A DNA stretch of 42,184 nucleotides, from the IMG/VR virus record IMGVR_UViG_2565956633_000005, positions 1-42,184 of that record. One strand, 5' to 3'. The stretch comes from a virus. Taxonomy: Duplodnaviria; Heunggongvirae; Uroviricota; Caudoviricetes. The notes below the pieces were generated by a model. The model was not told the DNA's origin. It saw nothing but the letters and a program-made list of their open reading frames with translations, and ran no database searches. Below are positions 10,304 to 40,994 of the stretch, piece by piece. A program made the position numbers and the translations under genes. Every line of letters begins with the position of its first letter. Positions within the stretch are counted from its first letter, which is position 1.

Positions 10304-10306
10304 GGA

Positions 10307-11208: not shown

Positions 11209-11212
11209 GTCA

Positions 11213-11593: not shown

Positions 11594-11594
11594 A

Positions 11595-12644
11595 TCAGAC
11601 CACCGTTGCGCAGAGGGATGCATTTACCCGGCTCGGAATAACCAGCGGGGAGGATTGCATCAGGATAAGACGCTGGGCTGGATCTTCTTTCACCCAGGAT
11701 TTTGGCGCATAAGCCAGCGGACCGTAGTTGAAAGCCGGGTCCAGGATAACGCCAAAGGCGCGGGTACCCATCAGATCGGCACCACTCATAATGACAGCGC
11801 CATCGGGGATCATAGGCTTCTCGACGTTGTCCAGCGGGTCAATAAACCAGTCGTTATATAACCAGAGGTCAAAGTTACCCCAACGCCCTTTATAAATTGC
11901 GCCCTTCATCGCCTGTGGGCCGGCGTTAATTTGGTTACCAAACGGGCTCAGCGCCGGGAATGTAATGGCGTTATCCTTGATGGTGGTATCCAGTCGGAAT
12001 GCACGCCATGACTTATTCGTAAAGACCAGATCCGTGGCGACAGAGCCGGACTCTTTCAGGAAAGTAGTCTGCCAGATTTCAATGTCATCTGATGGCTGGG
12101 TATTGGTAGCGCCAGCTGCAACGGTCAGAGGCCATTTATCCGAGCCGCTAAGAGTGATGGTCAGATCCGAAGCACGACCGAAATCCACCACCTTAGTTTC
12201 ATAGCCCTCCCCGGCGACGGTTACGGTCCCGGACACCAGCGCACTGGCCGCCATCCATTCCAGACGACGGTTGATCATGTCAATCTGGTCAGCCATTTCA
12301 AACTGAAGGTTCAGCATTTCGCGCTCGGCAGCGGTATATTCCCCGCCAATACGCTCACCAATCTGGCGACGGATAGGTTTGCGCAGGTCCGGCGCGCGCT
12401 TATCTTTGATGTATGCCGGTTTAAAGGTATTGGTCTGGTATTTACGGGATTCGACCAGCTTACCTTCCACCAGCGGGGAGACGAACGGCGCCATACGACG
12501 CAGGCCGACATCAACATCAATCGCCACTTCTTCAGTCTCGTAAGTTACGACATTCGGGAAGAAGCGATCGAGCAGCCAGTTCTGACTGGTTTTCAGGTTA
12601 GGAACAACCTGCACCAGCACGCTGGTATCAAAAATATTTTCCAT
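11595..12644 (-). CDS. major capsid protein, lambda gpE-like
   Basis: Resembles lambda E from memory; track start is a TTG, chosen start is ATG at 12642-12644 (MENIFDTSV...). Confidence 0.8.
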   Translation of the reverse strand: MENIFDTSVLVQVVPNLKTSQNWLLDRFFPNVVTYETEEVAIDVDVGLRRMAPFVSPLVEGKLVESRKYQTNTFKPAYIKDKRAPDLRKPIRRQIGERIGGEYTAAEREMLNLQFEMADQIDMINRRLEWMAASALVSGTVTVAGEGYETKVVDFGRASDLTITLSGSDKWPLTVAAGATNTQPSDDIEIWQTTFLKESGSVATDLVFTNKSWRAFRLDTTIKDNAITFPALSPFGNQINAGPQAMKGAIYKGRWGNFDLWLYNDWFIDPLDNVEKPMIPDGAVIMSGADLMGTRAFGVILDPAFNYGPLAYAPKSWVKEDPAQRLILMQSSPLVIPSRVNASLCATVV

Positions 12645-12741
12645 ATTCAGTCTCTTGATAGTGCCAGCCGCAGCTGGCAAAAAATTTAAACGAGCCAGCC
12701 CCTGCCGGTTAAAGCATTCGTCAGGAGAGCCGTGGGGGAAA

Positions 12742-13146
12742 TCAGGAGGTGGTTACAGGTGCCTGGTCACTGTCTTTCAGGAAGATAGCCAGCGGTCGGA
12801 GCGCTTTTTTCAGGTCAGCGGTCGTCCAGGAGTTATCAAAAATAATTCGGTGCTGGTTGAATTCCCCCATCAGATACAGGCCGCCGTTCTGATCGAAAGA
12901 CGATGCATCAACATCATCAACCAGAATAGCAACGGGTAACTGACTGCCATCTTCAGCCGTTTTCACACATTGCGTGTATTTCCCGCTGGCAGCCACCAGG
13001 CCCAGGACAGTACCACGCTTAAAGGCACCGCCCGTAATGATCCCGGTGTCAGTCACCAGCTGGAGCGTGCCAGCGACAAGCTGATCCGGAACAAACAGCG
13101 CGCTCTTCATGCCAGGCGCAAACGCATTCTGACCAAACTGATCCAT
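12742..13146 (-). CDS. head decoration protein (lambda gpD-like)
   Basis: 134-aa ORF between scaffold and capsid genes; GGAG RBS. Confidence 0.65.
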   Translation of the reverse strand: MDQFGQNAFAPGMKSALFVPDQLVAGTLQLVTDTGIITGGAFKRGTVLGLVAASGKYTQCVKTAEDGSQLPVAILVDDVDASSFDQNGGLYLMGEFNQHRIIFDNSWTTADLKKALRPLAIFLKDSDQAPVTTS

Positions 13147-13736
13147 TATTTCTCTCCTCTTGTGGAGTTGTAGAGGCCGGTCATTTTACTTACCAGCGCA
13201 GACTTTCCGGTCTCTTTCTGTCCGCTATCCGGATTAAGCCGGACCTGGTGGCTTTCCTGCATACGCTGATCGAGAGAGCGTTTACGGGATGGCTGAGATG
13301 CGGCTGCGGCCGGAGCCGAAGAGGCTAGGACATTAATTGCTGCCGCAGAACTCATCCCGGTATTGAAAGCCAGTGACGCGGCCAGTGAAGGATTCGCAGC
13401 TGCATGCTTACTGCCGAAAATACGGGCGCAGCGTTTACGCTCAGCAGCGCGTGCATTTTTTACCGCCTTACTCTCTTTGCGATCGTCGTCGCCGTCGTCT
13501 TCAGAATCATCATCTTCTGACGCATCCGGATCATCGCAGTCATCTTCAGCATCATCGTCGCGTTCGTCTTCTTCCGCGTCGTCGTCGCGCTCATCATCAT
13601 CGGCATCATCTTCGCGCTCATCCTCTTCCGCGCGACGGGCTTTCGCTTTTTTGGCTTTTTTATCCTCTTCTTCCTCAGAAGCGGAAGGGCCAAGACCAAT
13701 GAGGTGAGCAAAACTAAACGTCTTTTTCTTTGCCAT
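13146..13736 (-). CDS. scaffolding protein with acidic low-complexity repeats
   Basis: ATG at 13734-13736 (MAKKKTFSF...) with AGGAG RBS, right after protease stop; Asp/Glu-rich tract. Confidence 0.55.
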   Translation of the reverse strand: MAKKKTFSFAHLIGLGPSASEEEEDKKAKKAKARRAEEDEREDDADDDERDDDAEEDERDDDAEDDCDDPDASEDDDSEDDGDDDRKESKAVKNARAAERKRCARIFGSKHAAANPSLAASLAFNTGMSSAAAINVLASSAPAAAASQPSRKRSLDQRMQESHQVRLNPDSGQKETGKSALVSKMTGLYNSTRGEK

Positions 13737-13737
13737 T

Positions 13738-14604
13738 TCAGGCTCCTGTTTTTTCAAGTAAGTTTTTGAACGCAGCGTCAGGAGGACACACCTCATCAGC
13801 CAGTCCAATTTCAACGCCATCAGCAGCCATAAAACAGGCGGCCTGGGTACTTTTTATAACCTTTGCGCTAATCCCCCGGTTTCTGGCAACAGTGTTCACA
13901 AACAATTCGCCCATGGTGTTAATGTCCTGCTGGATGGCGGCCAGCGCTTCATCTGACAACTCTCTCAGCGGCGAACCTTCAGCCTTGCGGGATCCATAGG
14001 TGATGATCGTAACTTTAAGACCGTCATCTTTAATCCGCTGCGTCCAGTCAAGGTGCATGGTGATCACACCCACAGAACCCACTCCGCCGGTGCGCGGAAC
14101 AGAAATCCGGTCCGCTGCACTGGCAATGGCATACGCAGCGGAATAAGCGCTTTCCGTCAGAATGGCATGGATAGGCTTTTTCCCCCGGGAGCCGTAAATG
14201 ACATCAACCAGATCGAAGCATCCAGCGACCTCGCCGCCGGGTGAGTCGATATCCAGGCAAATGCCCGAAATGTCGGGATCTTCCATCGCAGTAAGAAACG
14301 CCTGACGAATGCCGTCATACCCTGTCATTCCACTGTACGGACGCAGACTGCCCAGTTTTTGCACCAGCGTTCCGCATATCGGGATGACGGCGACACCCAG
14401 CACATTGTCATAACCCGGATCACTACGGGATTCACGTCCCCGGTTATCGTCATATCCGTACCAGTCATCCTCCATGGCAAGAGAAGATTCGATTTTACTG
14501 ATACCAAATCGGTCCATTACGGATGCCATGATGACTTCGGCTTTACTCGGGTGCAGCGCCAGCGGGGTGTTAAATAATCGCTGGGCCAGATGGGGTAGAT
14601 TCAC
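13738..14604 (-). CDS. head maturation protease, S49/SppA family (lambda gpC-like)
   Basis: N-terminus NLPHLAQRLFNTPLALHP resembles lambda C; probable GTG start overlapping portal stop. Confidence 0.75.
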   Translation of the reverse strand: MNLPHLAQRLFNTPLALHPSKAEVIMASVMDRFGISKIESSLAMEDDWYGYDDNRGRESRSDPGYDNVLGVAVIPICGTLVQKLGSLRPYSGMTGYDGIRQAFLTAMEDPDISGICLDIDSPGGEVAGCFDLVDVIYGSRGKKPIHAILTESAYSAAYAIASAADRISVPRTGGVGSVGVITMHLDWTQRIKDDGLKVTIITYGSRKAEGSPLRELSDEALAAIQQDINTMGELFVNTVARNRGISAKVIKSTQAACFMAADGVEIGLADEVCPPDAAFKNLLEKTGA

Positions 14605-16238
14605 TTTTCCTCCGGATCGGTAATGGTCTGGCTCGCAAACTGGTCAGCCTGTGCCCAGCTCGGAAGCGGTAATCCGCGTTTAAGACATGACTCAATTTCT
14701 CTCTGGCGCTGATCAAGCACTTCTTCCCAGTCTTCACCGACGTTTTCACCCACCTCAATCTCGAGGGTGGAAAGTCCGGCATCCAGACCAAGAATGGCGC
14801 CTTTTTTCTCTGCAACCGGATCCACCCAGCCGCGCCCTGGCCCCATCCAGCGCGCGCGAGAATACGCGGCTCTGGCGTCAACAAAATCAGGTGCGCCTGC
14901 GGGCAGGGGTAAATCCTCATTGTCGTGAACTTCTTCAACAAAGGCGGTGAGAATGGGCTGAGCGAAGCCGGTAGAAAAATCGTCCCGGCGGCGAGTCAGT
15001 GTTTTCCATGCCTCCAGCAACGAGGAGCGTGCAGAACTGTAGTTAACGTCAGACCAGTCCTGGGTGACCTGCTGTGGGGACAACCCTGTTCCTGAAGAAA
15101 AATTACGGAGAACAGCAGATTCGAAGACTTCAAAATTGCTGTAGGGCCGCGCCGCGTTAACCGTCGTGATTTTCTCACCAGGATAAAGAATGGGCATTCG
15201 GGCACCATTCTGAAGTGTCAGACGCCGATCGTTATGGAACTCAACACGCCCGTCCTGATAAGTGCCTAACTCCGACTCGTCATAGGTCTCGCCCAGGGCA
15301 GACTGAACCATCGCAGGGTCATAGGGTGACTCAATGTAAGCGGCGAATATGGCATTAAGAATTGCTGCCTCAAGCTCACTCTGGTCATACTTCACCAGCA
15401 TTTTCAGACGCTGAATAACCGGAGTCAGGATGCCGTTACCGCGGTGCTGCGCGCCACGCTCATGATCAAAATCGTGAACTACATGCGGGCGGCCCCAGTC
15501 AGTTTCACGCGGGATACGCTGCCACGTCATGGTTTTAGCCCCGCTCCACCAGTCACCGATATGGGCCTCCCTGATGTGGTAAGCAACCGGTGCACCGTCC
15601 GCATCAATTTCAACGCCACCACGGACATTTGGCATATCGAAATTCTGCTGAGGATTACTGAGGCGGTCAGGATCGACAATCTGTACCGTGGTGGCGTAAC
15701 GCCCTCTTCCGGGACCAAGCCTGTCAGTTCTGTACTGGAGAATGGCCAGAGCATCCCCGTCAATAAGCTTGTGACGAAATCCCAGGCGTAACATCTGCGA
15801 CACGGTGAGTTTTCGTTCAACATCACAATACCGGCCAGGATCGTTACTCCAGGTCCGCCAGTGCCCGTCCAGTGCTTTTCCGTACTCTTCCGCCCAGGAC
15901 GCATCAAACGCCTTGTTTCCGGTGATCATTCTGAGAACACGGTAATCGGGTTTCATGATGGGGCGGAAGTTGGCACCAACCGCATTATCCAGCAGACGTG
16001 TGACCGCACCGTTTGCCCAGCCGTCATTACGGACCAGATCGCGTGCGCGGGACACGATGCGATCCCGGTAAATGTTAATTTCATTGTCCGGGGACCACAG
16101 CGCGGGTTGCCAGTTCGCCAGTTGATCGCTGAAAGAGTCAGCTGCGTCATAAGGTACGCGGCTCCCCCCCACCAGCATAGAAGGACGCTGCTGTCGCAAC
16201 GGCTGCCCATCAGAGCCCAGTATCTGTACTTTATTCAT
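14601..16238 (-). CDS. portal protein (lambda gpB-like)
   Basis: 545-aa ORF between gpW and protease. Confidence 0.8.
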   Translation of the reverse strand: MNKVQILGSDGQPLRQQRPSMLVGGSRVPYDAADSFSDQLANWQPALWSPDNEINIYRDRIVSRARDLVRNDGWANGAVTRLLDNAVGANFRPIMKPDYRVLRMITGNKAFDASWAEEYGKALDGHWRTWSNDPGRYCDVERKLTVSQMLRLGFRHKLIDGDALAILQYRTDRLGPGRGRYATTVQIVDPDRLSNPQQNFDMPNVRGGVEIDADGAPVAYHIREAHIGDWWSGAKTMTWQRIPRETDWGRPHVVHDFDHERGAQHRGNGILTPVIQRLKMLVKYDQSELEAAILNAIFAAYIESPYDPAMVQSALGETYDESELGTYQDGRVEFHNDRRLTLQNGARMPILYPGEKITTVNAARPYSNFEVFESAVLRNFSSGTGLSPQQVTQDWSDVNYSSARSSLLEAWKTLTRRRDDFSTGFAQPILTAFVEEVHDNEDLPLPAGAPDFVDARAAYSRARWMGPGRGWVDPVAEKKGAILGLDAGLSTLEIEVGENVGEDWEEVLDQRQREIESCLKRGLPLPSWAQADQFASQTITDPEEK

Positions 16239-16501
16239 CAGAATCTAAACCTCGCTGGTTTCCGGGGGCGAGAGATAATCCCCAGTTGCGCCTGCAGAAG
16301 TTGAATCAGGGCCAGCAGATCAGCCAGGGTGCTTTGCTGATAGGACACTGATCGCGTCCCGTCTCCCTGCGTATAGGAAAACGAAACACCGTGGCTCCCG
16401 GTTGCTAAATCAATGTACGCCTGCTGAGCTTTCGCAAGCGCATCCCTGAGCTGATCGTCAGTCATTGCGCCGGCAAGCAGGCTGGTGTTCCGGTTGAACA
16501 T
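16238..16501 (-). CDS. head-tail joining protein gpW-like
   Basis: 87 aa; C-terminal ...RPRKPARFRF resembles lambda W ...RRRGPAGFYV; sits between terminase and portal. Confidence 0.65.
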   Translation of the reverse strand: MFNRNTSLLAGAMTDDQLRDALAKAQQAYIDLATGSHGVSFSYTQGDGTRSVSYQQSTLADLLALIQLLQAQLGIISRPRKPARFRF

Positions 16502-16509
16502 GATTTTCC

Positions 16510-18633
16510 TTATTTCGGCAGGAGTTGCGATATTCGCTTACGTTTGACCGGCGCTGGTTCTTCAATAACCGCACCCGGCAGCTCGTAATTGATTTTTTCT
16601 TCCTGTCCAACTGGCGCTGGCAGGAACTTATCCGGATCGGCTTCGAGGTTGGCGGCCCGGACGTTGAGTTTTAACCCCATATGTTTGAGACCGCACAGCG
16701 CGGCATAGCTGTAAACGAGGCAGTCAAGCGCTTCGTTAGCTCGTCCTGGTATTGCTTCCCAGATACTGTACCGCTGCCCGGAAATGACTTTGTAAACCAG
16801 TCGCTCCGCCAGCAGCTGATTGAAGTACCCGAGATCGCGATCGTCAGGAAAATGCATATAACCCGCAGCGGCGGCGCCAGGTTTGGGTGGCTCAAGATGC
16901 AGGCGACCGCGTATCACGTCTTTCGCTGAGTTAACCCCCAGAATGACAGGGCGGAAACTGGCTTTGCTTTTCGATGATGGTCGTTTGGTCGGCCAGACAG
17001 GATTGCGTTTGCCTCCCTGTGCAGACTCCCCCTTAATTGCCCAGACACGACGGCCAAGACGCTCTTTGGCGAATTCGTATACCTTCTGCGTATGGTGGCC
17101 GCCGGAGTCCATGCACGTTGCCATGATATTCAGGCCGCGCCCGTCACCACGTCGCCAGATCTGTTTCAGGTATGCATCCAGTCGCTTCCAGGGTTCTTCC
17201 GTCTCAAGGTCACCATAAATAACGTCATGCGCGACCGACCACGATTCTTCATCTCTCCCCCAGCCGGTGATCGTAATTTCGAAGCGATCGTCCTGGGTAT
17301 CAACTCCAGCTGTTAACAATGCCACCCCGTCCGGAACGACGGCCGGAAATATTTCCCGGCGCGCCAGCAGAACATCAACAGGGAGCTGTTTCCCATGATT
17401 AGGTCGGTGCGGAAGCCCCATCTGGGTATTCCACCACGCCTGTTCCTTATCCGGATCGCCCTTCGCATCGATATATTTTTTCGCAATATCCGACGGCTTA
17501 TCTTTTTGCCAGGGGCTGAAAAGCTTGGATGCCTGGTACCCCGCGTGGTGGTTATCGACTGCCTCCTTTCCACAGGAGGGGCAGATTGCGCGATAGACCG
17601 CATGCCGTTCCGACTCTGACCATTGCCAGACCTTTTCAACGCTGCCCTCGTCTGCCGCCCGCCAGGCAAGGTCATAATCCATCAGCGGTGAGTGCCGCTC
17701 CCCGCAGCACTCAAATGGGCGCGTCTGATGCCATCGAATAGTGTGCAGAGCTCTGAGGCGCTGTCCTTCGGACCAGCCACTACCACAGCATTCGCAATAG
17801 AGCATCGCCGATTTAGTCAGGTGTTTATCTCCCTCTTTCGGCCACTGAACGTGTTTGAAAAAGTCGGGGAACTGGCGGTGGCCACAGTGCGGGCAAACCA
17901 CAGATGCCCGGCGCTGATCGGAGTCGGCGTAGCTGTCAGCAATGCGGCTCTCATCCTCCACCGTCGGCGAACAGGCGCGTACAGACAGCCAGGTCAGGCC
18001 AAATGTCGCTGTACGCTCTTCGGCCAGCGCAATTGGATCGCCTTCGCGGGTTATCGGGTACTTGTCCACTTCATCCGCCAGCAGGACACGAATCGGACGA
18101 CGCGCAAGGTTATCAGGGCTACCAGCACCCGCCAGCGCCAGAAATCCGCCAGTGAATGCCTTGTAAAGAATGGTTTCTTTCGAGCTTTTCTGTTTCGAAT
18201 CACCGATGATTTTACGCAGTACCGGCGTCACCCTTACCAGCGGGCTAATACGCTCTTTCGAAAACTGTTCAGCGGCTTCTTCTTTCGGCTGCAGCAGCAG
18301 TATCGGACAAGGATCGAGGTGGGCAAAATAGCCAAAAAGGTTTTCCAGCAGTGCTGTCTTCATCAACTGGGTACAGCACATTACAGTGATGATATGAACC
18401 CCGGACTCCGTCGCGGCAAGCATCGGTCCGCGGGCAATTTCTACCGTCGATGTTTCCCAGTTTCCCGAAGTGCTCCCAGCCTCTTTTGCCAGCTTACGAT
18501 AGTCATCTGCCCACTGCGGCACACTGATACGCGGCGGGGGTGTCCAGCCTTTGCGGACGCTTAATTCAAGACGCTCAATCTTCTGCCGGGTTAAACTCTG
18601 GCTCTCCGAGGACTGAGATGTGTTTGTGGACAT
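16510..18633 (-). CDS. terL: terminase large subunit (lambda gpA-like)
   Basis: About 707 aa; track start is TTG, ATG at 18631-18633 chosen. Confidence 0.85.
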   Translation of the reverse strand: MSTNTSQSSESQSLTRQKIERLELSVRKGWTPPPRISVPQWADDYRKLAKEAGSTSGNWETSTVEIARGPMLAATESGVHIITVMCCTQLMKTALLENLFGYFAHLDPCPILLLQPKEEAAEQFSKERISPLVRVTPVLRKIIGDSKQKSSKETILYKAFTGGFLALAGAGSPDNLARRPIRVLLADEVDKYPITREGDPIALAEERTATFGLTWLSVRACSPTVEDESRIADSYADSDQRRASVVCPHCGHRQFPDFFKHVQWPKEGDKHLTKSAMLYCECCGSGWSEGQRLRALHTIRWHQTRPFECCGERHSPLMDYDLAWRAADEGSVEKVWQWSESERHAVYRAICPSCGKEAVDNHHAGYQASKLFSPWQKDKPSDIAKKYIDAKGDPDKEQAWWNTQMGLPHRPNHGKQLPVDVLLARREIFPAVVPDGVALLTAGVDTQDDRFEITITGWGRDEESWSVAHDVIYGDLETEEPWKRLDAYLKQIWRRGDGRGLNIMATCMDSGGHHTQKVYEFAKERLGRRVWAIKGESAQGGKRNPVWPTKRPSSKSKASFRPVILGVNSAKDVIRGRLHLEPPKPGAAAAGYMHFPDDRDLGYFNQLLAERLVYKVISGQRYSIWEAIPGRANEALDCLVYSYAALCGLKHMGLKLNVRAANLEADPDKFLPAPVGQEEKINYELPGAVIEEPAPVKRKRISQLLPK

Positions 18634-19144
18634 GTTCAATCAGCACCTCTGTCATCCTGTCCGCCGGTACATCCAGATCAGCAGCCATTAGCGGCGCCAC
18701 CCTGGACGGCCAGTTAAGCCAGGCATCACGCTGTTGGCGAAAGGCGTTGAATAAAACCTCCTCGGCTGCTGTCAGCTCAATAAGCTGGCCGCTGTCTTTT
18801 TCATACTGCAGCTTTGCCTGCAGGGCCATGTAATTCTCGCGGATACGTCCCGCTTCCTCTCTCGAAAGATCTGCCCCTTCAGTGAGCATTATCTGGCGGA
18901 CAGTTTTATTGATTTCATCACCGTCATCATCGTTATCGCTAACGACGGGAGTTTTCTTTTTCTTCGCGTTCGAGGCGCGCGGGTCTTTGCCATCGCGGTT
19001 TTTCTTCAATGCCGCATCGCTGGCCTCTACGTCAATCAGGTCTCCGTCCATCACAATGAAGCGCCCGGCTTTAATCCACCGGCCAATTGTTTTGCGATCC
19101 ACACCTGAATGTTGTGCGTACTGACTCTGGTTCATCGTGGTCAT
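18575..19144 (-). CDS. terS: terminase small subunit (lambda Nu1-like)
   Basis: 189 aa, N-terminal HTH; overlaps terL start as in lambda. Confidence 0.75.
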   Translation of the reverse strand: MTTMNQSQYAQHSGVDRKTIGRWIKAGRFIVMDGDLIDVEASDAALKKNRDGKDPRASNAKKKKTPVVSDNDDDGDEINKTVRQIMLTEGADLSREEAGRIRENYMALQAKLQYEKDSGQLIELTAAEEVLFNAFRQQRDAWLNWPSRVAPLMAADLDVPADRMTEVLIEHVHKHISVLGEPEFNPAED

Positions 19145-21855: not shown

Positions 21856-22262
21856 AGCCTCACCTCCGATTTTTCGGATGGCGCTGTGTGTGTTTGAAAA
21901 GGGTCAGGCTTCACGGGCTGGATTTATCAACAAAGCACGTAGCGGATGATTCCCGTGAGCCTGAAATTGATGAATATGTCTGAAATAACTAGACCATTAG
22001 TAAAACAACTCGATAAATGTGGTTAAATGAGACTACGTTCTCACAACTTAATTAGTACCAATGATTATCAAGCCCTGCCCCTACTGCGGAAAGTTAATTA
22101 ACCCAGAATCACTTGTGTGTAGCCACTGCCGGATAGTGAATCCTTTTGTGAAGGCCAGCAGAAGAGAAAAAGCGAAGAATGTATTAGTAATCGCTCTCGT
22201 TGCTGCTTTTTTAATTTGGATGATTCTCTGAGTTGCCAGTTTTCAATGAAGATAATGCGGGC

Positions 22263-22289
22263 AAAAAAAGCCTGCTCGGACGAACAGGC
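22263..22289 (-). terminator. intrinsic terminator candidate
   Basis: Minus-strand hairpin GCCTG-N10-CAGGC followed by U7 (plus A-run 22263-22269). Confidence 0.45.
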
Positions 22290-22706
22290 ATGAAAAATAA
22301 CAATACCGTCAAGGAGGTGGCGCCGGGTGCCTCCCGGTGGAACAGCCCCAGCCGACTAGTTCCGCGCAAACAAACCTGGACAAAAAAGTTTGACTGGACG
22401 CCCCGCCGCATAGGGGGATTCACCACGAACCAAAAGATAAAATCATCCGGTGACCGGGGCAATATCTAACCGGAACTTTTCAGAATCACTTATTGTTTCC
22501 TGGAGAGTACATGAGCGTTGGTGAATTCACGTGATGCTTTTGGATGAGCGCTGAACCCAAAGGTCAGTATTTTCACACAGCAATTTTGCAAAAAGCAGCG
22601 CCCATTCAAAACCAGGTCGCTTTCCAGTCACTCCGGGGAACCCATCATCGCAGACTGGAAAGCTTTTACTGGAGCGGGCAAAGGAATCGAACCTCTGACG
22701 CGCAGC

Positions 22707-23167: not shown

Positions 23168-23242
23168 TGGCGGGACAGGAAGGATTCGAACCTTCGACCA
23201 TTCGGTTAACAGCCGAACGCACAACCGCTGTGCTTCTGACCC
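23168..23242 (-). tRNA. tRNA-Asn (anticodon GTT)
   Basis: Hand-folded cloverleaf: T arm GAAGG-TTCGAAT-CCTTC, anticodon loop CTGTTAA, G73 discriminator, encoded CCA; deviations A8 and a U-U mismatch in the acceptor stem. Confidence 0.6.
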
Positions 23243-23249
23243 TGAAATG

Positions 23250-23275
23250 AAAAAGCCCCGCACGATGGCGAGGCT
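23250..23275 (-). terminator. hairpin plus U5 between late promoter candidate and tRNA
   Basis: 8-bp stem with one mismatch, then UUUUU on minus-strand transcript. Confidence 0.3.
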
Positions 23276-23328
23276 CTTAATTCTTTGTCGACCTACGAAG
23301 CTATGGCGACGATATCATATTTACATGA

Positions 23329-23357
23329 AATATATGCTATTTAATTGACTTTTGCAA
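23329..23357 (-). promoter_or_regulatory. candidate late promoter (pR'-like)
   Basis: Minus strand TTGCAA-17 nt-TATATT overlapping the 3' end of the Q-like gene. Confidence 0.3.
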
Positions 23358-24030
23358 TACCATGCCGCGAAAAAGTCGTTTTTTGTTGTGAACGTGATCG
23401 AGAAACCGTCAGCAAAGCTTGTCTGTCCAATCCTTGGAAAATTTCCCCCATAGCCCGCCAGTAGCCAGAATAGTTATGGCTCCAGTTATCGGGTTTAATT
23501 CCGATCATAGAAGCTGGCGCATAACGTAAGCAGCCTTCCCTGCCTGAAATATCTGCTTTTTCATTCTGAGCCGCCAGCCAGATGAGCTGACGCAGGCGAT
23601 CTACCGTTTTCTTTGCAATGCGCACACCTGCAAATTGTTGGTTGAATTGCTCCCACGCCCAGCGGACAATCGTCTCCTGGAGCTCCCAGCAGATATTGTC
23701 GCTGTAGGTCCAGAGCAACCATGCTCTCTGATGGTCTTCCAGAGACAGGACAGCGCGGCGCCATGATGCGGTGCCGAACTCTACCGGACTCACCAGCGCG
23801 ATTGACGAGCCCTTGGCGCGTGACTGACTGCCGCTCATCGGCGGGCCGTCGGGGTTAACCATGCGCTTTTTCTGCGCGTCATAGACTTTCTTCCGCCCCC
23901 GACTCCGCGCCGTCGCGGTGAATTGCGCGTTCTCGGCGAAAGCTACCAGCTGCCCTTTCGTCGCCCCGCTGAGGTCTGCGGTCGCCACAATGAGCTGCTG
24001 ACGTACGTATTCCAGTTGCTGACTGTTCAT
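23341..24030 (-). CDS. putative late antiterminator Q-like protein
   Basis: 229-aa ORF in the Q position between nin genes and late leader; family assignment tentative. Confidence 0.5.
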   Translation of the reverse strand: MNSQQLEYVRQQLIVATADLSGATKGQLVAFAENAQFTATARSRGRKKVYDAQKKRMVNPDGPPMSGSQSRAKGSSIALVSPVEFGTASWRRAVLSLEDHQRAWLLWTYSDNICWELQETIVRWAWEQFNQQFAGVRIAKKTVDRLRQLIWLAAQNEKADISGREGCLRYAPASMIGIKPDNWSHNYSGYWRAMGEIFQGLDRQALLTVSRSRSQQKTTFSRHGIAKVN

Positions 24031-31030: not shown

Positions 31031-31798
31031 ATGGTTAAAAAAGACGATTTAAAAGAAGAATTCTCGAAGAGACTTCGCGCTGCATTGCTTGATGCTGGCG
31101 TGGGTGGGCGTGGGCAGGCTGGCAGGATCAGGGAAGCTATGAAGTCCCAAGGGATTGCTGTATCTGAGCCCGGGATCTGGAAGTGGCTTAACGCATCAGC
31201 AATACCAGACCAAACCAATATCCTTGCACTTAGCCGCTGGCTTGGGGTTCGCCCTGAGTGGCTGGAATACGGAAGGAATGATCCTGAACCTGAACTGCAC
31301 AGGGTATCATCCATCCCGCCTGAATCTGAGTGGGGAACTGTCGACGCTTGGGACAAAAATACCCCCCTACCTGACGATGAGGTGGAAGTACCGTTTCTGA
31401 AGGATATCGAGTTTGCGTGTGGTGATGGGCGTGTTCATAGCGAAGATCATAACGGCTTTAAACTGAGGTTCTCCAAGGCAACGCTCAGAAGGGTGGGTGC
31501 AAATAGTGATGGTTCTGGAGTGCTTTGCTTTCCCGCTTCTGGTGACAGCATGGAGCCCGTTATTCCTGACGGCGCAACGGTAGCAGTCGATACAGGCAAC
31601 AAGCGGATTATTGACGGCGAACTCTATGCTATTAACCAGGGCGATTTAAAGCGCATAAAGCAGCTTTATCGAAAGCCTGGTGGGAAGCTATTAATACGAA
31701 GCATCAATCGCGATTATGACGATGAAGAGGCTGATGAGGCAGATGTCGAGATAATCGGTTTTGTGTTCTGGTACTCGGTATTGCGATATCGCCGATAA
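31031..31798 (+). CDS. cI: CI-like repressor (HTH plus S24 LexA-like autopeptidase domain)
   Basis: 255 aa; C-terminal GDSMEPVIPDGATVAV...K motif. Confidence 0.8.
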   Translation: MVKKDDLKEEFSKRLRAALLDAGVGGRGQAGRIREAMKSQGIAVSEPGIWKWLNASAIPDQTNILALSRWLGVRPEWLEYGRNDPEPELHRVSSIPPESEWGTVDAWDKNTPLPDDEVEVPFLKDIEFACGDGRVHSEDHNGFKLRFSKATLRRVGANSDGSGVLCFPASGDSMEPVIPDGATVAVDTGNKRIIDGELYAINQGDLKRIKQLYRKPGGKLLIRSINRDYDDEEADEADVEIIGFVFWYSVLRYRR

Positions 31799-32064: not shown

Positions 32065-32544
32065 ATGGATAAAATTAATTACCCACCCCTGTTTGAGCCA
32101 GGGCTCCATGACATGGATGAAGCTGGATTAAAATCGTATTGTGTCGATTGCTTTCCTTCATCATCCAGGCGAGGCATGCTATACTGTAATTTTATACAGC
32201 TACTCGAATCTATTCGAGAATTATCTGCTCAATATGGCTGTTTTACAGAAATATGGGTTGATGGTTCATACACCACGTCTAAACCAGAGCCTGATGATAT
32301 TGATATTTTGTTGGTATGTGACTATAGCAATATAAACTCAATACCTGTCATGCTTCGGGGCCGCGTCGATAATTTGCTTGACCGAAACTACATCAAACAA
32401 AACTACAAAATTGATGTCCTACTACTCATGAAGAATTTAGATGACCCTAACTATGATTATGAGTACTGGCGTAGCTACTGGCGCGGTTGGTTTGGTTTTG
32501 ATCGCAGTGAAAACCCGAAAGGGTTAGTGAGGATTTTTTTATGA
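32065..32544 (+). CDS. minimal nucleotidyltransferase-like protein (Pol-beta superfamily signature)
   Basis: 159 aa; AAGG RBS; EIWVDGSYTTSKPEPDDIDILLV fits hG[GS]x9-13Dx[DE]; later KIDVLLL acidic strand; AT-rich. Confidence 0.55.
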   Translation: MDKINYPPLFEPGLHDMDEAGLKSYCVDCFPSSSRRGMLYCNFIQLLESIRELSAQYGCFTEIWVDGSYTTSKPEPDDIDILLVCDYSNINSIPVMLRGRVDNLLDRNYIKQNYKIDVLLLMKNLDDPNYDYEYWRSYWRGWFGFDRSENPKGLVRIFL

Positions 32545-33473
32545 ATGATAAATCAATGTTTAAAAATTGCGATAAACGCATTGATTTCATTCAAAAAGAA
32601 GTCGATGCAATGAAGCAAAACAAAACCAGGTCCTTTGCTGACATGCTTCTTTATCGCTCCATGGATTCTCATCTGAGCGATTTGAAGGCCGAAAAATTAA
32701 AGCAAGATAGTCGGCACCCACTTATCGATTTTTTTGAGCTGCGGCTGAAAGGCTCTGAGGTTGACTTTGGCTCTATTCCTTTAGAGCTGCTTGGGGCTAT
32801 TTCAACAAATCTTGCAGCGCTAATACAAAGAGCAACACACAAAATTGCCTCAGGCAAGGACTCAAAAAAAGTTCCCTACGACGTGAAAAGCTCCTTAAAC
32901 CTCAGGCTGGCTGATTTATCCCCTGGGTCTACAAAATTGGGCGTCACCTTCTCTACAGGAATAGCAGAATTAGTAGAAACAGTACCCAGCAAGGCTGTAA
33001 AAGGCATATTCGATTTGTTGTTAAGCGATGACGACAACAACTTCATGAATCACGTCGCTGAAATTGGATACAATTCCACTGTAAGCCTTAAGAGAATCGT
33101 AGAGGAATGCGATAAACACAACTTAACATTTGATGCAAGTTGGACCGGTCCATTTAGTAATGGCACCAAGGTGGCAACTATTGACTCCAATAAAATTAAG
33201 TACTTGGTGAGTAGACTTACATCAACCATTTCATCCCCTCCCATTACTGAAACGGTTACAGGCGAACTGGTCGTTCTATCCAAATATGGGAAGCTGGAGC
33301 TTGATGTTGGTGGTGAACATTTAAAGGCTTCCTATCCGATTGAAATGCTAGATTTAATACAAAAAAAACACAAGGTCGGACAGATTGTTTCTCTTTTAGT
33401 GGAGACTACTGAGATTCACAATGATCGCATAGGTCTGTACCGTAAAAACCATCTTGTTAAATCGGTTCTTTAA
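32541..33473 (+). CDS. hypothetical protein, partner of NTase-like gene
   Basis: 310 aa; ATGA overlap with upstream gene; GTGAGGA RBS; no recognisable motif. Confidence 0.55.
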   Translation: MNDKSMFKNCDKRIDFIQKEVDAMKQNKTRSFADMLLYRSMDSHLSDLKAEKLKQDSRHPLIDFFELRLKGSEVDFGSIPLELLGAISTNLAALIQRATHKIASGKDSKKVPYDVKSSLNLRLADLSPGSTKLGVTFSTGIAELVETVPSKAVKGIFDLLLSDDDNNFMNHVAEIGYNSTVSLKRIVEECDKHNLTFDASWTGPFSNGTKVATIDSNKIKYLVSRLTSTISSPPITETVTGELVVLSKYGKLELDVGGEHLKASYPIEMLDLIQKKHKVGQIVSLLVETTEIHNDRIGLYRKNHLVKSVL

Positions 33474-33957: not shown

Positions 33958-34373
33958 CAACCCATCGAAACGAAACATCGACAGCTGAGCGAAGTTAGCC
34001 AGCGGCGGACAGCAAGTCGCCTGCTTTTTAACAACATGCAGATTTACAGCGTCAATGACCTGTTAAGACCCCTACACGTAAACGTGCTGTATCACCGGGT
34101 GCGATCCGGTCGGTGAGAGAGTATCCCCGCGCGAGAGCGAGAACGGCGTGAGAACGGGCAACACTGGCAGGGAGTTGGCGCTGACCAATACAGGGAATGT
34201 TATGGGATGTGGTGAAGGGTTCATGGACGGGAATATGTCGCACGTAAAGCGGCGAGGCCCGAGGAGCTATTGCCGAAGATAAGTAGGCCGAATCGGGTCG
34301 AAATGGGTCTCCCACCTACCACAGCACCAAAGCATTTCTCCCGCATCAGCGGGTAACTAAGTGGAGAGTAAGT

Positions 34374-34562
34374 ATGCACAAGTGTCAATTCTGTGGGTAC
34401 TTTCTGGCATCTGAAGAGATGCAGAGAATATCTGTAAACATGGTTGGCAGGCCTTACAACATCTGCATTCCATGCTCAGAAAAGTACAAAAAGAAAGGCC
34501 TGTGGGATTCGGCAAAAAACGATATCGACTGGAAAGCACTTCCATGCGTCGATGAGACATAA
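34374..34562 (+). CDS. small Cys-rich hypothetical protein
   Basis: 62 aa, GGAGAG RBS, CxxC...CxxC pattern. Confidence 0.4.
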   Translation: MHKCQFCGYFLASEEMQRISVNMVGRPYNICIPCSEKYKKKGLWDSAKNDIDWKALPCVDET

Positions 34563-35048: not shown

Positions 35049-35255
35049 ATGGTAAACCAGCACTACGGTACACAGACAGTAAACCGCGGCGCAGTTCAGC
35101 CGGGGATGCTCGTCAAACACAAGGATTCAACCTGGACGGCATCAGCTAATGCTCGTGGTCGTTTGTATCTGCATCGCGGCGTTGAGATGACTTACACCAG
35201 GGATTTGCTGGTTGAAGTTTATCTGAACGGTCTGGGGAATGGCCTCAGCCATTAA
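35049..35255 (+). CDS. hypothetical protein
   Basis: 68 aa with AGAGGA RBS. Confidence 0.35.
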   Translation: MVNQHYGTQTVNRGAVQPGMLVKHKDSTWTASANARGRLYLHRGVEMTYTRDLLVEVYLNGLGNGLSH

Positions 35256-35820: not shown

Positions 35821-35960
35821 GCGAAAGCCCACCGAAGTGGGCCCGCCATGTCCGGCCTCACCGACCAAAGTTACACCGGAAACAACATTAAAACCAAAGT
35901 TAACCCAATGGGCGCTATCAATGGTCCGGGGATTCTAACACCCAAAAATGAGGATCTCAC

Positions 35961-38900
35961 ATGGAATTCTTTAATGTGGTTAAAGCCACTCAGAAATCCG
36001 GAAAGCAAGATGCAGTGGTCTGGTTCACTGCTAAAACCGAGGCTCGCGCCAATCTGATGCTGGATGTTGCGCTGGAAGATGCAGGTATCGAAACAGGTCG
36101 GGGTAAGGACTACGCCAAACCGATTCGCACTGATTTCCCAGTTGTCGACGGCCTGCCGAAAGAAGGTGAAGTTGATTTTACCTGGTGTGATCGCTACGAG
36201 CTTCAGGACGATGGGCGCACCTGGCTGCCAAAAGCCGCTGGTGTGTCTACTGGTTCCGTTGACGCCCCCTACACACCTACTCCGACCGTAATCGTTGAAG
36301 ATGCGACTGCGTCCGAAATTGTCCCGGTTGAAAACCGTACTCCAGCGGTCCGCTTTGCCGTCCATCTGATGAACGATAAATACCAAACCCACGTCACTAA
36401 AGAGCAGCAGTTGGCTGCCAGCGAAATGTCACTGGATGAAGGCAATACATATCTCCATAGCCTGCTTGTGGCAAGGAACGATGTGCCCGCGACCGCCAAA
36501 CTCAGCCTGAATGCTGAGTGGAAAATGATTCGGGCGGTTAAGGACATTTTCACACCCGACGAAGAGCACGAACCAAGATTGATCGCTGCATTCATGTCTG
36601 ACTGGGTGAACACCGATGCCGGTGACCGCAATCAACTGGTAGAAGACTGGCGCAGTGGTAAGTTGCAGTTGCTCAAAACTGAAACCAGCAACGCTGCTGA
36701 CGTTACAACGGGTCAAGATCTCACTGTTGAGGACGGTATCCAGACCGACGAGAACGGCCGGGCAGAAGGTGGCGTCGTTGATGGTGAAGTCGATACCGAA
36801 GAGCAATCCCAGCAGACACAGCAACCGAACCTGATCGTTGTTGCCACCCTGCCATTCCGCCAGCGCGTACTGGCTCAGTTCATCGGTGATGGTGAATATC
36901 TCTATCACATCGACGCAGGGCAGAAAAATGAGATTGTCCGCCTTGAGATGGACACCGATGACGCGTACGTCCAGAACCTGCTGCTGGCAGCTGAGAATGT
37001 GGAAGCATTCAAAAAAGCCATTGAGCACGATATTCATAAAGTCGTGAATGCCGTTAAGAAAGTCTTCCCTGTCGATGGAAAAATCCCTGAACTCGCAACC
37101 TTAATCCAGTTTTTGAAATTGTGGTTCGCTACAGATCACATCGACCGCGGTATCCTCGTTCGCGAATGGGCCGCCGGTAATCGCATCAGTAGTGTGCAGC
37201 GTACTGATTCCGGAACCAATGCCAACGGCGGTTACGTCACTGACCGTGGACCTGATACATACCATACCCTTGACACTCTCGATTTAGAGATTGCATGTGC
37301 CCTTCTGCCTATGGACTTCAACCACTTCGAGATCCCGGGCAGCATTCTTCGTCGCGCTAAAGAAATCGTGACCAAAAAAGAAGAACCATGGAAATCATGG
37401 AGCAACATCCTGCGCAATCAGCCAGGCGTTCTGGGTGTTAACCGCACGGCTATTTTTAACCTGGTACGTATCGCACCGGAAAATATTCATTTAACTCCTG
37501 TCGCTCACCTGGAATTTGTTAACCAGACCATGACAGCCGCGTTCAATTCCGCGGTCGAGTTATTGCCGTTGCATGAGGCTGAACCCGCAGCACAGGAAAT
37601 TCCCCAACCTGAAGGTAAGGAGTCTCCGCGCAAATCCTTCTGCACTCACGAAGAGAACCTGCAACGCGTGCGTGAAGAAGGAGCACGCCGCCGCGCAGAG
37701 GAAGCGGCAGCACAACCGCAGAAAGTCGAACAAGAACTGGTTAAAAATGTCGGCAACGGAATATTCGACGTTACGGCTTTGCTGCAGAACTCAGCAACTC
37801 ATGGCACGAAAAAGGCTACGGAGACCACCAGCAATGTGCAGGTTCAAGAAACTGTCAGTGATGAAAAACAAGCTGGTGATGAAGTACAGCCAGGCGAAAG
37901 CAGTCTGGAGTCTGGTGAAGAGTCAGATACCAGCCAGAAGGACGATGTAAACCAGAATACGGATTCTGTCGCCAAAAATAGCGATTCTGTAAGCCAAACC
38001 GAACCAGTTGCAGCACAAACCGAGCCAGAAGCGCAATCTGACGAACCGGCTGTTGTTTATCCCGCTTATTTCGAGCCAGGCCGCTATGAAGGGCTGCCAA
38101 ACGAGGTTTACCACGCCGCCAACGGCATCAGCTCAACCCAGGTGAAAGATGCGCGCGTTTCGCTGATGTACTTCAATGCGCGCCACGTAGAGAAAACCAT
38201 CGTCAAAGAGCGCTCAGCGGTGCTGGACATGGGCAACTTGGTGCATGCGCTGGCGTTGCAGCCTGAACTACTGGACGCAGAATTCAGCGTTGAACCGGTG
38301 ATCCCTGAAGGCGCATTCACAACGGCCGCGACCCTGCGCGCCTTTATCGATGAGCACAATGCCAGCCTGCCGGCGCTGCTGTCTGCCGACGACATCAAGG
38401 TGTTACTGGAAGAGTACAACGCCACCCTGCCGCCGCAGGTTCCGCTTGGCGCTAACCTGGAAGAAACGGCACAGAACTATATGGCGCTGCCAGCTGACTT
38501 CCAGCGTATTGATGGTGACCAGAAGCAGACGGCGACGGCAATGAAGGCATGCATTAAAGAGTACAACGCCACCCTGCCGCCGCCGGTTAAAACCAGCGGC
38601 AGCCGTGACGCGCTGCTGGAGCAGTTGGCAATCATCAACCCTGACCTTGTGGCTCAGGAAGCACAGAAACCGGCACCACTGAAAGTGTCCGGTACCAAAG
38701 CAGACATGATCCAGGCCGTGAAGGCAGTCAAACCAGATGCCGTATTTGCCGACGAACTGCTGGATGCCTGGCGCGATAACCCGGAAGGAAAAGTGCTGGT
38801 CACCCGCCAGCAGCTGAGCACCGCGCTGAATATTCAAAAAGCGCTTCTGGCACACCCGACCGCCGGCATGCTGCTGACCCACCCTAGCCGAGCCGTTGAG

Positions 38901-39350
38901 GTGAGCTACTTTGGTTTTGACGAGGAGACGGGCTTGGAAGTTCGTGTGCGCCCTGACCTTGAGATCGACCTGGATGGCGTGCGTATAGGTGCAGACCTGA
39001 AAACCATCAGCATGTGGAATGTTAAGCAGGAAAGCCTGCGCGCCAGGCTACACCGGGAAATTATTGAACGTGATTATCACCTGAGCGCGGCTATGTACTG
39101 CGAAACCGCAGCGCTGGATCAGTTCTTCTGGATTTTCGTCAACAAAGACGAGAACTACCACTGGATCGCCATCATCGAGGCATCCGCTGAACTACTGGAG
39201 CTGGGTATGCTCGAGTACCGCAAAGCGATGCGCAATATCGCAACCGGATTCGACACAGGTGAATGGCCAGCGCCAATCACTGCTGACTACACCGACGAAC
39301 TGAACGACTTCGACCTGCGCCGCCTTGAAGCGCTGCGTACTCAGGCATAA
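35961..39350 (+). CDS. recE: large RecE-like exonuclease (putative exodeoxyribonuclease VIII-type)
   Basis: 1129-aa ORF with TGAGGA RBS directly upstream of RecT-like gene; nuclease assignment by synteny, tentative. Confidence 0.5.
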   Translation: MEFFNVVKATQKSGKQDAVVWFTAKTEARANLMLDVALEDAGIETGRGKDYAKPIRTDFPVVDGLPKEGEVDFTWCDRYELQDDGRTWLPKAAGVSTGSVDAPYTPTPTVIVEDATASEIVPVENRTPAVRFAVHLMNDKYQTHVTKEQQLAASEMSLDEGNTYLHSLLVARNDVPATAKLSLNAEWKMIRAVKDIFTPDEEHEPRLIAAFMSDWVNTDAGDRNQLVEDWRSGKLQLLKTETSNAADVTTGQDLTVEDGIQTDENGRAEGGVVDGEVDTEEQSQQTQQPNLIVVATLPFRQRVLAQFIGDGEYLYHIDAGQKNEIVRLEMDTDDAYVQNLLLAAENVEAFKKAIEHDIHKVVNAVKKVFPVDGKIPELATLIQFLKLWFATDHIDRGILVREWAAGNRISSVQRTDSGTNANGGYVTDRGPDTYHTLDTLDLEIACALLPMDFNHFEIPGSILRRAKEIVTKKEEPWKSWSNILRNQPGVLGVNRTAIFNLVRIAPENIHLTPVAHLEFVNQTMTAAFNSAVELLPLHEAEPAAQEIPQPEGKESPRKSFCTHEENLQRVREEGARRRAEEAAAQPQKVEQELVKNVGNGIFDVTALLQNSATHGTKKATETTSNVQVQETVSDEKQAGDEVQPGESSLESGEESDTSQKDDVNQNTDSVAKNSDSVSQTEPVAAQTEPEAQSDEPAVVYPAYFEPGRYEGLPNEVYHAANGISSTQVKDARVSLMYFNARHVEKTIVKERSAVLDMGNLVHALALQPELLDAEFSVEPVIPEGAFTTAATLRAFIDEHNASLPALLSADDIKVLLEEYNATLPPQVPLGANLEETAQNYMALPADFQRIDGDQKQTATAMKACIKEYNATLPPPVKTSGSRDALLEQLAIINPDLVAQEAQKPAPLKVSGTKADMIQAVKAVKPDAVFADELLDAWRDNPEGKVLVTRQQLSTALNIQKALLAHPTAGMLLTHPSRAVEVSYFGFDEETGLEVRVRPDLEIDLDGVRIGADLKTISMWNVKQESLRARLHREIIERDYHLSAAMYCETAALDQFFWIFVNKDENYHWIAIIEASAELLELGMLEYRKAMRNIATGFDTGEWPAPITADYTDELNDFDLRRLEALRTQA

Positions 39351-39355
39351 GGGGA

Positions 39356-40474
39356 ATGATGATGGAAAACACGAATATCGTAACCGCTGAACAGCAGACT
39401 CCAAACACGATCTCAGCCAGCAATGCCATTTTCAACGTGCAGGCTTTAACCCAGCTTCAGTCTGTCGCCGGGTTGATGGCACAGGCAGCCGTAACGGTGC
39501 CTGAGCACCTCCGCGGCAATCCGGCAGACTGCATGGCCATCATCATGCAGGCGATGCAGTGGGGTATGAACCCTTACGCCGTGGCGCAAAAGACGCACCT
39601 GGTTAACGGTGTCCTGGGATACGAAGCGCAACTGGTTAATGCGGTGATCTCCAGCTCAAACGCCATCGTTGGCCGCTTTCACTATGAGTACGAGGGCGAC
39701 TGGTCGAAATGTGCCAGCAGCCGCGAGATAACCGTTAAAAAGCCTGCGAAAGGTGGCGGGACGTACGACAAGAAAGAAATGGTACGCGGTTGGGAAAGTG
39801 CTGATGAACAAGGACTGTCGGTACGGGTAGGTGCCGTTATTCGCGGTGAAAGTGATATCACCTGGGGAGAGCCTGTTTTCCTCTCCAGCGTAATCACACG
39901 TAATTCTCCACTTTGGGTATCAAACCCGAAACAGCAGATCGCTTATCTGGCACTCAAATACTGGGCGCGCCTGTATTGCCCTGCAGTTGTTCTTGGTGTG
40001 TACACCCCTGATGAGATTGAACAGCGCACAGAAAAAGAGATCAACCCAACGCCGCAACGCGTTAGCCTGGCTGATATCTCAGGTGACACCGTCACAACCA
40101 CGCAAAGCGCACAGGAATCGTCGGTAAATGTCGACTCTCTTGCCGATGATTTCCGCGAACGCATCGAATCTGCTCAGGACGTGGATAGCGCCAAATCGCT
40201 GCGTGCCGACATTGAAACGGCGAAAGCTACGCTGGGATCCGCACTATTCACCGAGCTAAAAAACAAAGCCGTAAAGCGTTATTACCTAGTGGATGCACGC
40301 AACAAGGTTGAGGAGGCTATTAAATCCCTGCCCCAGCCCGACGAGCCGCATGCAGCCGAACGGTTCGCTGAAGCCGAGCGCATGCTTGCATCTTCAAAGC
40401 GTCACTTAGGCGATGAACTGCACGATCAATTCAGCATCACCCTGGCGGATATGAAACCGGAATACGTGGCCTGA
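39356..40474 (+). CDS. recT: RecT/Red-beta family single-strand annealing protein
   Basis: ...IIMQAMQWGMNPYAVAQKTHLVNGVLGYEAQL... resembles Bet/RecT core; AAGGGG RBS. Confidence 0.55.
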   Translation: MMMENTNIVTAEQQTPNTISASNAIFNVQALTQLQSVAGLMAQAAVTVPEHLRGNPADCMAIIMQAMQWGMNPYAVAQKTHLVNGVLGYEAQLVNAVISSSNAIVGRFHYEYEGDWSKCASSREITVKKPAKGGGTYDKKEMVRGWESADEQGLSVRVGAVIRGESDITWGEPVFLSSVITRNSPLWVSNPKQQIAYLALKYWARLYCPAVVLGVYTPDEIEQRTEKEINPTPQRVSLADISGDTVTTTQSAQESSVNVDSLADDFRERIESAQDVDSAKSLRADIETAKATLGSALFTELKNKAVKRYYLVDARNKVEEAIKSLPQPDEPHAAERFAEAERMLASSKRHLGDELHDQFSITLADMKPEYVA

Positions 40475-40512: not shown

Positions 40513-40755
40513 ATGCGACTGATCAATCGAGGAAGTAAGCAATCACCTTTAGCTCGCCAAGCATGCGACATCGCGCTGGCAGCTCACTTGCAAACATATG
40601 GCGACTATGGGCGAAGCAAGATGAAAGAGACTTATACGGTGAAGGTTGAAGGCGTGAAAGTCTGGGTGGAGGTGGTGAACCGAAAGGCGAGCTACGTGGC
40701 CACAGCGATGACCGGCATGCGCCGTCTCCGCTCCCTGCCCGGGCAGGTTGGTTGA
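40513..40755 (+). CDS. hypothetical protein
   Basis: 80 aa with AAGGAG RBS. Confidence 0.4.
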   Translation: MRLINRGSKQSPLARQACDIALAAHLQTYGDYGRSKMKETYTVKVEGVKVWVEVVNRKASYVATAMTGMRRLRSLPGQVG

Positions 40756-40796
40756 AAAAGATTTTGAATGGCCCGAACGGGCAACTGGAGAGAGCT

Positions 40797-40994
40797 ATGG
40801 ATGATATTTTGGTAACGTCAGACCTGACCAGTCGCTACAAAATTTCACGCAAAACCCTTTGGTCATGGCAAAGTGCAGACACAATGCCTCGGGGCTTCGT
40901 ATGCCCGTTCCCACCCCCTGACTGGCCCGGCAACCCTAACCGCTGGCGCTCTGAGTCAATCAAAGAGTGGGAGGATAAAAAGAAGATAAATTAA
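40797..40994 (+). CDS. xis: excisionase / AlpA-family DNA-binding protein
   Basis: ATG at 40797 with GGAGAG RBS; ...[10 protein letters not shown]...FP.P pattern; convergent with int, overlapping stops. Confidence 0.55.

Follow-up and report, generated by a model that had tools for sequence, protein, structure and literature searches.

The locus studied here raises the question of why a phage exonuclease should be as long as 1129 amino acids (aa), and whether the additional length gives it a second function. It lies in a stretch of DNA of 42,184 nucleotides (nt) from a virus of the Caudoviricetes (IMG/VR record IMGVR_UViG_2565956633_000005, positions 1 to 42,184), hereafter the window, and consists of two genes on the plus strand. 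The first, recE (35961-39350; 1129 aa), is predicted to encode a RecE-family 5'->3' exonuclease of double-stranded DNA (dsDNA) of the Gifsy/HK225 type, and the second, recT (39356-40474; 372 aa), a RecT-family single-strand annealing protein. The initial annotation of this DNA had seen the large open reading frame (ORF) just upstream of the smaller one, which is indeed the case, with 5 nt between them, and had proposed an exonuclease-annealase pair with an extended and possibly multifunctional exonuclease. Our analysis indicates that the two genes are very probably the exonuclease-annealase recombination module of a lambdoid Escherichia coli prophage, of the kind present in Gifsy-1/2 and HK225, and that RecE owes its length to accreted non-catalytic parts.

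The gene calls themselves are straightforward. A GAGGA ribosome-binding site stands 6 nt ahead of the ATG of recE, and the 5-nt gap from its stop to the first ATG of recT falls inside TAAGGGGAATGATGATGG, where a Shine-Dalgarno-like AAGGGGA is also found; RefSeq places the start of recT at the third ATG (39362), giving a product of 370 aa. The 4.5-kilobase segment shows 99.4-99.7% nt identity to 16 E. coli chromosomes, in which RefSeq labels the two products "RecE family exodeoxyribonuclease" and "RecT family recombinase", and 96.3% nt identity over the whole pair to gp34/gp33 of phage HK225 (NC_019717), whose RecE is also of 1129 aa and 97% identical in aa sequence. The recE product matches phrog_607 with 1273 bits, in which the label "exonuclease VII" is a mislabel for VIII. 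This is an ordinary RecE-RecT pair, already annotated in RefSeq and in HK225, and the gene call adds nothing new. The divergence of recE from its HK225 counterpart is sharply mosaic, in such a way that aa 1-292 hold one synonymous difference only and aa 701-944 show synonymous divergence (dS) values of 0.5-1.1, which points to recent intragenic recombination between related phages.

With respect to size, RecE deserves the description of unusually large when compared to the RecE of Rac (866 aa), but not within its own family. Close relatives range from 961 to 1142 aa, and among 2015 RecE-family representatives (expectation value (E) <= 0.001) many have 800-1100 aa and some 1127-1341 aa. In the related pairs of mEp237, Gifsy-1, PHB10 and a Klebsiella phage, RecE has 969, 961, 1057 and 1012 aa, respectively, and each RecT partner has 361-370 aa.

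The C-terminal part of RecE (38061-39350, plus strand; aa 701-1129) is a PD-(D/E)XK nuclease domain. Pfam detected the PD-(D/E)XK-like family PF12684 (DUF3799) at aa 952-1104, with 39.3 bits against a cut-off of 26 (E 7.9e-10), and an AlphaFold2 (AF2) model of aa 690-1129, based on 58 diverse homologues, reached a predicted local distance difference test score (pLDDT) of 95.4 and a predicted template modelling score (pTM) of 0.79. The top PDB match of this model in Foldseek was E. coli RecE (3H4R; E 2.5e-9, probability 1.0, template modelling score of 0.60 on the target), followed in the ranking by MGME1, Cas4, the RecB nuclease and other PD-(D/E)XK exonucleases, and its matches in BFVD included many viral proteins named "Exodeoxyribonuclease 8, PDDEXK-like". 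The catalytic residues H762, E980, D999, D1012 and K1014, and also Y1039, are invariant across the 58 homologues, which span 25-88% identity. Of the two nuclease types envisaged by the initial annotation, PD-(D/E)xK and YqaJ, the first was found, in its RecE form, and the second was not, as neither protein matched the YqaJ or Bet families (Pfam, E <= 0.01). The initial annotation had named the lack of any nuclease domain in the large protein as the result that would overturn its proposal, and the domain found here means that the proposal withstands this check.

The correspondence with the Rac enzyme extends to single residues. In the HMMER alignment to 3H4R, H762 coincides with H652 of Rac RecE, an active-site residue (PMC11611040), the RVRPD stretch that contains D999 coincides with RCRPD, and ADLKT (D1012-L-K1014) with MDVKT. 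An alternative register produced by BLASTP and MAFFT, with "MDVK" of Rac on "WNVK" of the window protein, was dropped for the "ADLKT" of HMMER, a canonical D-x-K, given the invariance of both D1012 and K1014 among the 58 homologues. Over the whole protein, BLASTP aligned both RecE sequences in four collinear blocks with 27-33% identity, and they share an Exonuc_VIII N-terminus, a helical middle, a linker and a PD-(D/E)XK C-terminus, as well as the operon position and neighbours of their genes. By contrast, Rac RecE has a rim loop of only 27 aa and no N-terminal duplication, and lacks the last helix of around 20 aa of the window RecE. The nuclease is predicted to be of the RecE type rather than of the YqaJ/lambda-Exo type. 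Lambda Red (Exo/Red-alpha and Bet/Red-beta) is likewise a two-component recombinase encoded at the same early-left operon position, and Exo, too, is a ring-forming enzyme with a PD-(D/E)XK core, but it is a 226-aa protein of the YqaJ type that assembles as a trimer with the opposite subunit orientation; moreover, Bet belongs to a different family from RecT, and lambda adds Gam.

The smaller protein matched the RecT family (PF03837) at aa 39-228, over profile positions 2-195 of 198, with 125.5 bits against a cut-off of 24 (E 2.5e-36), and phrog_561 (RecT-like annealing protein) with an E of 2.6e-165. Therefore, from the Bet/RecT-like core described initially, the RecT half stands and the Bet half does not. 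The conserved core reaches aa ~228; beyond it, aa 229-262 form a variable linker and aa 263-372 a helical C-terminal domain that is again conserved and finishes in DMKPEY, as deduced from 35 homologues. Homologues of 340-375 aa and 70-99% identity occur in Escherichia, Citrobacter, Salmonella, Enterobacter and others, frequently under the legacy name "enterohemolysin", which is a mislabel. The C-terminal domain, of around 110 aa, is missing in Rac RecT (269 aa).

In the genome, recE lies directly upstream of the gene of its partner annealase in a phage early operon. The early-left order in the window is kil, ydaE, STM2631-like, recE, recT, DUF4060, (xis) and int, and an equivalent order is found in HK225, where the pair lies between kil/ydaE-like genes and DUF4060-xis-int, and in Rac (kilR-ydaE-racC-recE-recT...xisR-intR), so that the three loci are syntenic. 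The match to PF12684, the fold similarity to 3H4R, the invariant catalytic residues, the RecT partner in the same operon and the location shared with recET of Rac and HK225 all support the proposal of an exonuclease-annealase pair. In such a pair, the PD-(D/E)XK domain of RecE would bind a dsDNA end, within a ring expected by homology with Rac RecE, and would digest the 5' strand processively to leave a 3' single-stranded tail. This tail would then be coated by RecT, which is translated from the same transcript with a start 5 nt further on, and annealed to a complementary single strand. Phage annealases are believed to contact both the partner exonuclease and the host single-stranded DNA-binding protein (SSB) through their C-terminal domains, and the RecT-RecE interaction is specific (PMC11611040); the long C-terminal domain of the window RecT probably docks to RecE and/or to the host SSB.

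It could also be argued that the two genes no longer function and are decaying within a cryptic prophage, the unusual length being due to junk insertions or fused frames. In favour of this, the best-known recET element, that of Rac, belongs to a defective prophage, relatives often vary in length, and the gene immediately upstream of recE is frameshifted in one sister genome. We regard this as highly improbable. Both ORFs are intact and preceded by ribosome-binding sites, the catalytic residues are preserved, and both the viable phage HK225 and a cluster of 326 member sequences at 90% identity have the same 1129-aa architecture. Besides, the overall ratio of nonsynonymous to synonymous substitution rates (dN/dS) of the whole recE against HK225 is 0.10, and the set of head, tail, terminase, replication and integrase genes in the window is complete. 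The window resembles a complete prophage, with genes for terminase, portal, major head protein, tail sheath, tape measure and baseplate, and also for a Q-like antiterminator, an O-like replication protein, an S24/LexA-type repressor and an integrase.

The accreted parts would consist of a second helical N-terminal module, acidic disordered linkers and a repeat insertion in the nuclease domain, the last of these replacing the rim loop to which the capture of dsDNA ends is attributed in Rac RecE. This helical insertion (38295-38792, plus strand; aa ~779-944) substitutes aa 665-698 of the Rac protein, in such a way that 167 aa separate the anchors F775 and G943 in the window RecE, compared to 27 aa between F665 and G693 in Rac. 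AF2 confidently predicted eight helices in it. Its sequence is built from three A units, with the motif IKxxLEEYN at aa 792, 812 and 861 and a period of 20 aa where they are in tandem, and two B units, GSRDALLEQLAIINP at aa 880 and GTKADMIQAVKAVKP at aa 911, which follow the SAP-like pattern G[ST][RK]xxLhxxhxxhNP with a 31-aa period. The sequence EYNATLPP, reported twice by the initial annotation, is located at aa 818-825 and 867-874, 49 aa apart, within a pair of 32-nt direct repeats (38410-38588, plus strand) that start at 38410 and 38557, 147 nt from each other, and are identical at 31 of 32 positions; a third copy, 75% identical, is found at 38350, 60 nt upstream. EYNATLPP is a genuine internal repeat and not a chance coincidence.

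The pair of 32-nt repeats may act as a substrate for the in-frame gain or loss of 49 codons. A natural E. coli variant of 1080 aa (P0016) lacks exactly aa 827-875, the 49 codons between the 32-nt repeats, and P0280 has the same junction. Among family representatives clustered at 50% identity, the rim loops fall into length classes of 25-28, 44-59, 68-69, 98, 118, 136, 145-147, 167, 170-176, 192 and 218-220 aa, which correspond to one A plus one B unit up to four A plus three B units, and in another lineage the same site is filled by unrelated 24-aa KPxDKxIxxxExW repeats. The insertion is not free to drift, with dN/dS values of 0.06-0.15 that are comparable to those of the catalytic core, which marks it as functional protein. 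These data raise the possibility, which we advance tentatively and with more doubt than confidence, that the rim loop of RecE is an evolvable cassette of short helical repeats whose copy number shifts by recombination between near-identical DNA repeats, giving loops of around 27, 69, 118, 167 and 218 aa, and whose number, in case the units bind dsDNA, tunes the grip on the DNA end. A rim-loop insertion that behaves as a variable-copy repeat cassette, with a weak likeness to SAP, is the sole mildly new point of this locus. No account of rim-loop repeats was found in the literature on RecE with SAP, HeH or DUF3799, a search whose coverage was incomplete, so that the novelty is unproven.

Regarding its role, the insertion would most likely act as an enlarged collar that binds the DNA end. 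The helix-linker-helix pattern of the SAP-like region was confidently predicted by AF2, the homologous B unit of a relative (P0309) scores 25.8 bits against SAP, above the cut-off of 23.9, and another relative (P0243) shows a SAP match of 19.5 bits together with a Thymopoietin/LEM-like match on an A unit (E 0.0018). The insertion might instead be a protein-protein platform for the C-terminal domain of RecT or for SSB, as a RecT of around 370 aa with a C-terminal domain of around 110 aa co-occurs with an insertion-bearing RecE in the window, HK225, mEp237, Gifsy-1, PHB10 and the Klebsiella phage, whereas Rac has neither the insertion nor the RecT domain. However, the insertion replaces a loop at the rim where DNA enters, the number of units varies from one A plus one B to four A plus three B among homologues, which is unusual for a specific docking surface, and the SAP and Thymopoietin/LEM-like matches point to DNA binding, so we consider a platform clearly unlikely and favour the collar.

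A number of results weigh against the reading of the pair and of its insertion given above. The window insertion itself matched Pfam SAP (PF02037) below the threshold, with 14.3 bits and an E of 0.03, and over the second helix only. The window RecE scored 516.3 bits against NF007259, the NCBIfam equivalog model of the Rac exonuclease VIII, far from its cut-off of 1269; it must then be taken as a member of the RecE family and not as an equivalog of the characterised Rac enzyme, in accordance with the RefSeq name "RecE family". As for RecT, no BLASTP similarity to Rac RecT was detected, and searches against PDB sequences gave noise only, whether the query was RecT alone or a profile of 35 sequences. 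By its sequence, the window RecT belongs to a separate subfamily within the RecT family.

The N-terminal 700 aa of RecE contain the remaining sources of length. Exonuc_VIII (PF06630) matched this part in two stretches, with 113.6 bits against a cut-off of 25 (E 1.5e-32). The first of them (aa 4-102) covers the N-terminal domain (35961-36248, plus strand; aa 1-96), which is conserved with Rac RecE, aligns by BLASTP to its aa 6-100 and has a dN/dS of 0.10-0.17. The second falls in a conserved central helical region (36837-37553, plus strand; aa 293-531), homologous to aa ~180-351 of Rac RecE (33% identity to aa 182-351, E 1e-27 in BLASTP) and matched by phrog_6528, 26058, 2489 and 2082. A faint match to YdfE_C (PF27432) appeared between the two; it was rejected as a distinct functional domain, since being flanked by Exonuc_VIII matches makes it part of the same N-terminal architecture.

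Between these conserved parts, positions 36249-36836 on the plus strand encode a further copy of a helical N-terminal module (aa ~97-235) and an acidic linker (aa 236-292). Internal repeats of RecE were not found by BLASTP of the protein against itself and were revealed by Smith-Waterman alignment with shuffling, in which aa 139-233 aligned to aa 311-406 (score 109, z 15.7), and we interpret the first segment as a diverged duplicate of the second. Of the relatives compared, only HK225 and PHB10 also have module and linker (aa ~97-292), which mEp237, Gifsy-1, the Klebsiella phage and Rac lack, and a natural variant of 966 aa (P0116) lacks aa 92-262, in such a way that this segment explains most of the difference in length from relatives of 961-1012 aa. 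Its dN/dS is 0.30 in the module and 0.65 in the linker.

The second linker, rich in E, Q, S and T by composition (37554-38060, plus strand; aa 532-700), connects the central region to the nuclease and, in a low-confidence model, is predicted to be disordered except for a charged helix at aa 563-581. The acidic low-complexity stretches described initially do exist (aa ~236-292 and ~600-700), but they are only moderately acidic, with 11 D/E against 2 K/R at aa 251-300 and 21 D/E against 5 K/R at aa 601-700. Close relatives differ in the acidic linkers by indels of 13-37 aa, and these linkers evolve fast (dN/dS of 0.35-0.9; 0.35-0.43 for the linker at aa 532-700). The AF2 model of the full-length protein, made with a shallow alignment of 28 sequences, had a mean pLDDT of 42.6 and is unusable for the N-terminal 700 aa.

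The conservation of this long N-terminal region leads to the question of whether RecE is a multifunctional fusion, in which around 700 residues carry a second activity, as an inhibitor of RecBCD that replaces Gam, an end-tethering device or a recruiter of host factors, reinforced by the duplication of the module. Conservation with Rac RecE was evident in BLASTP (E 1e-27 and 2e-22), the region is under purifying selection (dN/dS of 0.10-0.30), RecET cassettes usually come without a gam gene, and the full-length Rac RecE, N-terminus included, enhances linear-linear recombination (PMC11611040). Even so, apart from Exonuc_VIII, YdfE_C and the C-terminal nuclease, no domain was detected in RecE with Pfam, PHROGs, NCBIfam or PADLOC; the full-length profile recovered 3H4R as its only PDB match, leaving the N-terminus with no solved relative; and the duplicated module is missing in the close and presumably functional proteins of mEp237, Gifsy-1 and P0116. 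Neither RecE nor RecT matched a defence system in PADLOC, so a role in defence is unsupported. A second activity thus appears unlikely, and the suggestion of multifunctionality found no backing in these searches; an accessory, non-catalytic role of the N-terminus is possible, but unsupported here. The reading we retain is that of a conventional exonuclease enlarged by non-catalytic parts.

A close parallel outside E. coli genomes and HK225 is provided by the recET genes of Gifsy-1/2 (STM2632/STM2633), the first of which was once labelled sbcA. They share with the window the type of nuclease, the 167-aa rim insertion (80% aa identity) and a RecT of around 370 aa, but RecE of Gifsy-1 has 961 aa, no duplicated N-terminal module and an N-terminal domain only 43% identical to that of the window. 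The Gifsy orthologues are repressed in the lysogen and, when activated by mutation, suppress recombination (recB) defects (PMC3121763). The similarity extends to a small RNA. An isrB-like RNA (Rfam RF01386; 38.2 bits against a cut-off of 35) is encoded at 35822-35919 on the minus strand, antisense within the 140-nt gap upstream of recE, and a promoter-like site on the same strand (35960..35932) overlaps the ribosome-binding site and ATG of recE. In Salmonella, isrB-1 and isrB-2 occupy the same position beside the Gifsy recE gene, named "sbcA" there (PMC2330248). The isrB-like RNA may be a putative regulator of recE through antisense pairing.

Other features of the window were observed. Its late region (373-19144, minus strand) encodes a contractile tail, with a tail sheath (phrog_165), baseplate hub and wedge, which together with the lambdoid early region (Q, O-like, repressor, kil, recET and int) identifies it as a mosaic lambdoid prophage of the myovirus type. 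The late genes of HK225 differ from these, and its tail genes shown are N15- and HK022-like, unlike the tail sheath of the window. Downstream of recT, an 80-aa ORF at 40752-40994 (plus strand) with a TTG start, or of around 65 aa from an internal ATG, has a 4-nt overlap with the end of the integrase gene; its position is that of the excisionase in HK225 and mEp237, and it is unannotated in the RefSeq sister genome.

A low-GC (40-42%) insert of two genes, 32065-32544 and 32541-33473, both on the plus strand, is located between the S24/LexA-type repressor gene (31031-31798) and kil (35049-35255). The product of the first contains DUF6932 and matches PDC-M63A of PADLOC (E 4e-41), and that of the second (310 aa) matches PDC-M63B (E 7.5e-45), which makes the pair at 32065-33473 a candidate prophage-borne system of anti-phage defence; in the sister prophage of strain W619 a gene of the Nmad5 family is found in its place. 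Above their Rfam gathering scores, an STnc100 small RNA (22259-22451), a tRNA (23171-23242) and isrJ (23252-23325), all on the minus strand, form a cluster that adjoins the Q-like antiterminator gene (23341-24030). Finally, several overlapping ORFs of 50-87 aa with proline/serine-rich translations are found at 34052-34560 on the minus strand, opposite a plus-strand ORF of 62 aa rich in cysteine (34374-34562), in a region that gave no Rfam match at the gathering score.

RecET systems are workhorses of recombineering and direct cloning, and this lineage offers natural variants that can be compared with each other: RecE with or without the duplicated module, rim loops of one to seven units, and RecT with an unusually large C-terminal domain. 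If the rim loop is indeed a cassette of DNA-binding repeats, their number could affect the processivity of the enzyme or its preference for linear-linear recombination, and the HK225-type RecE, which also bears the duplicated N-terminal module, would be a naturally "enhanced" variant of interest for direct cloning.

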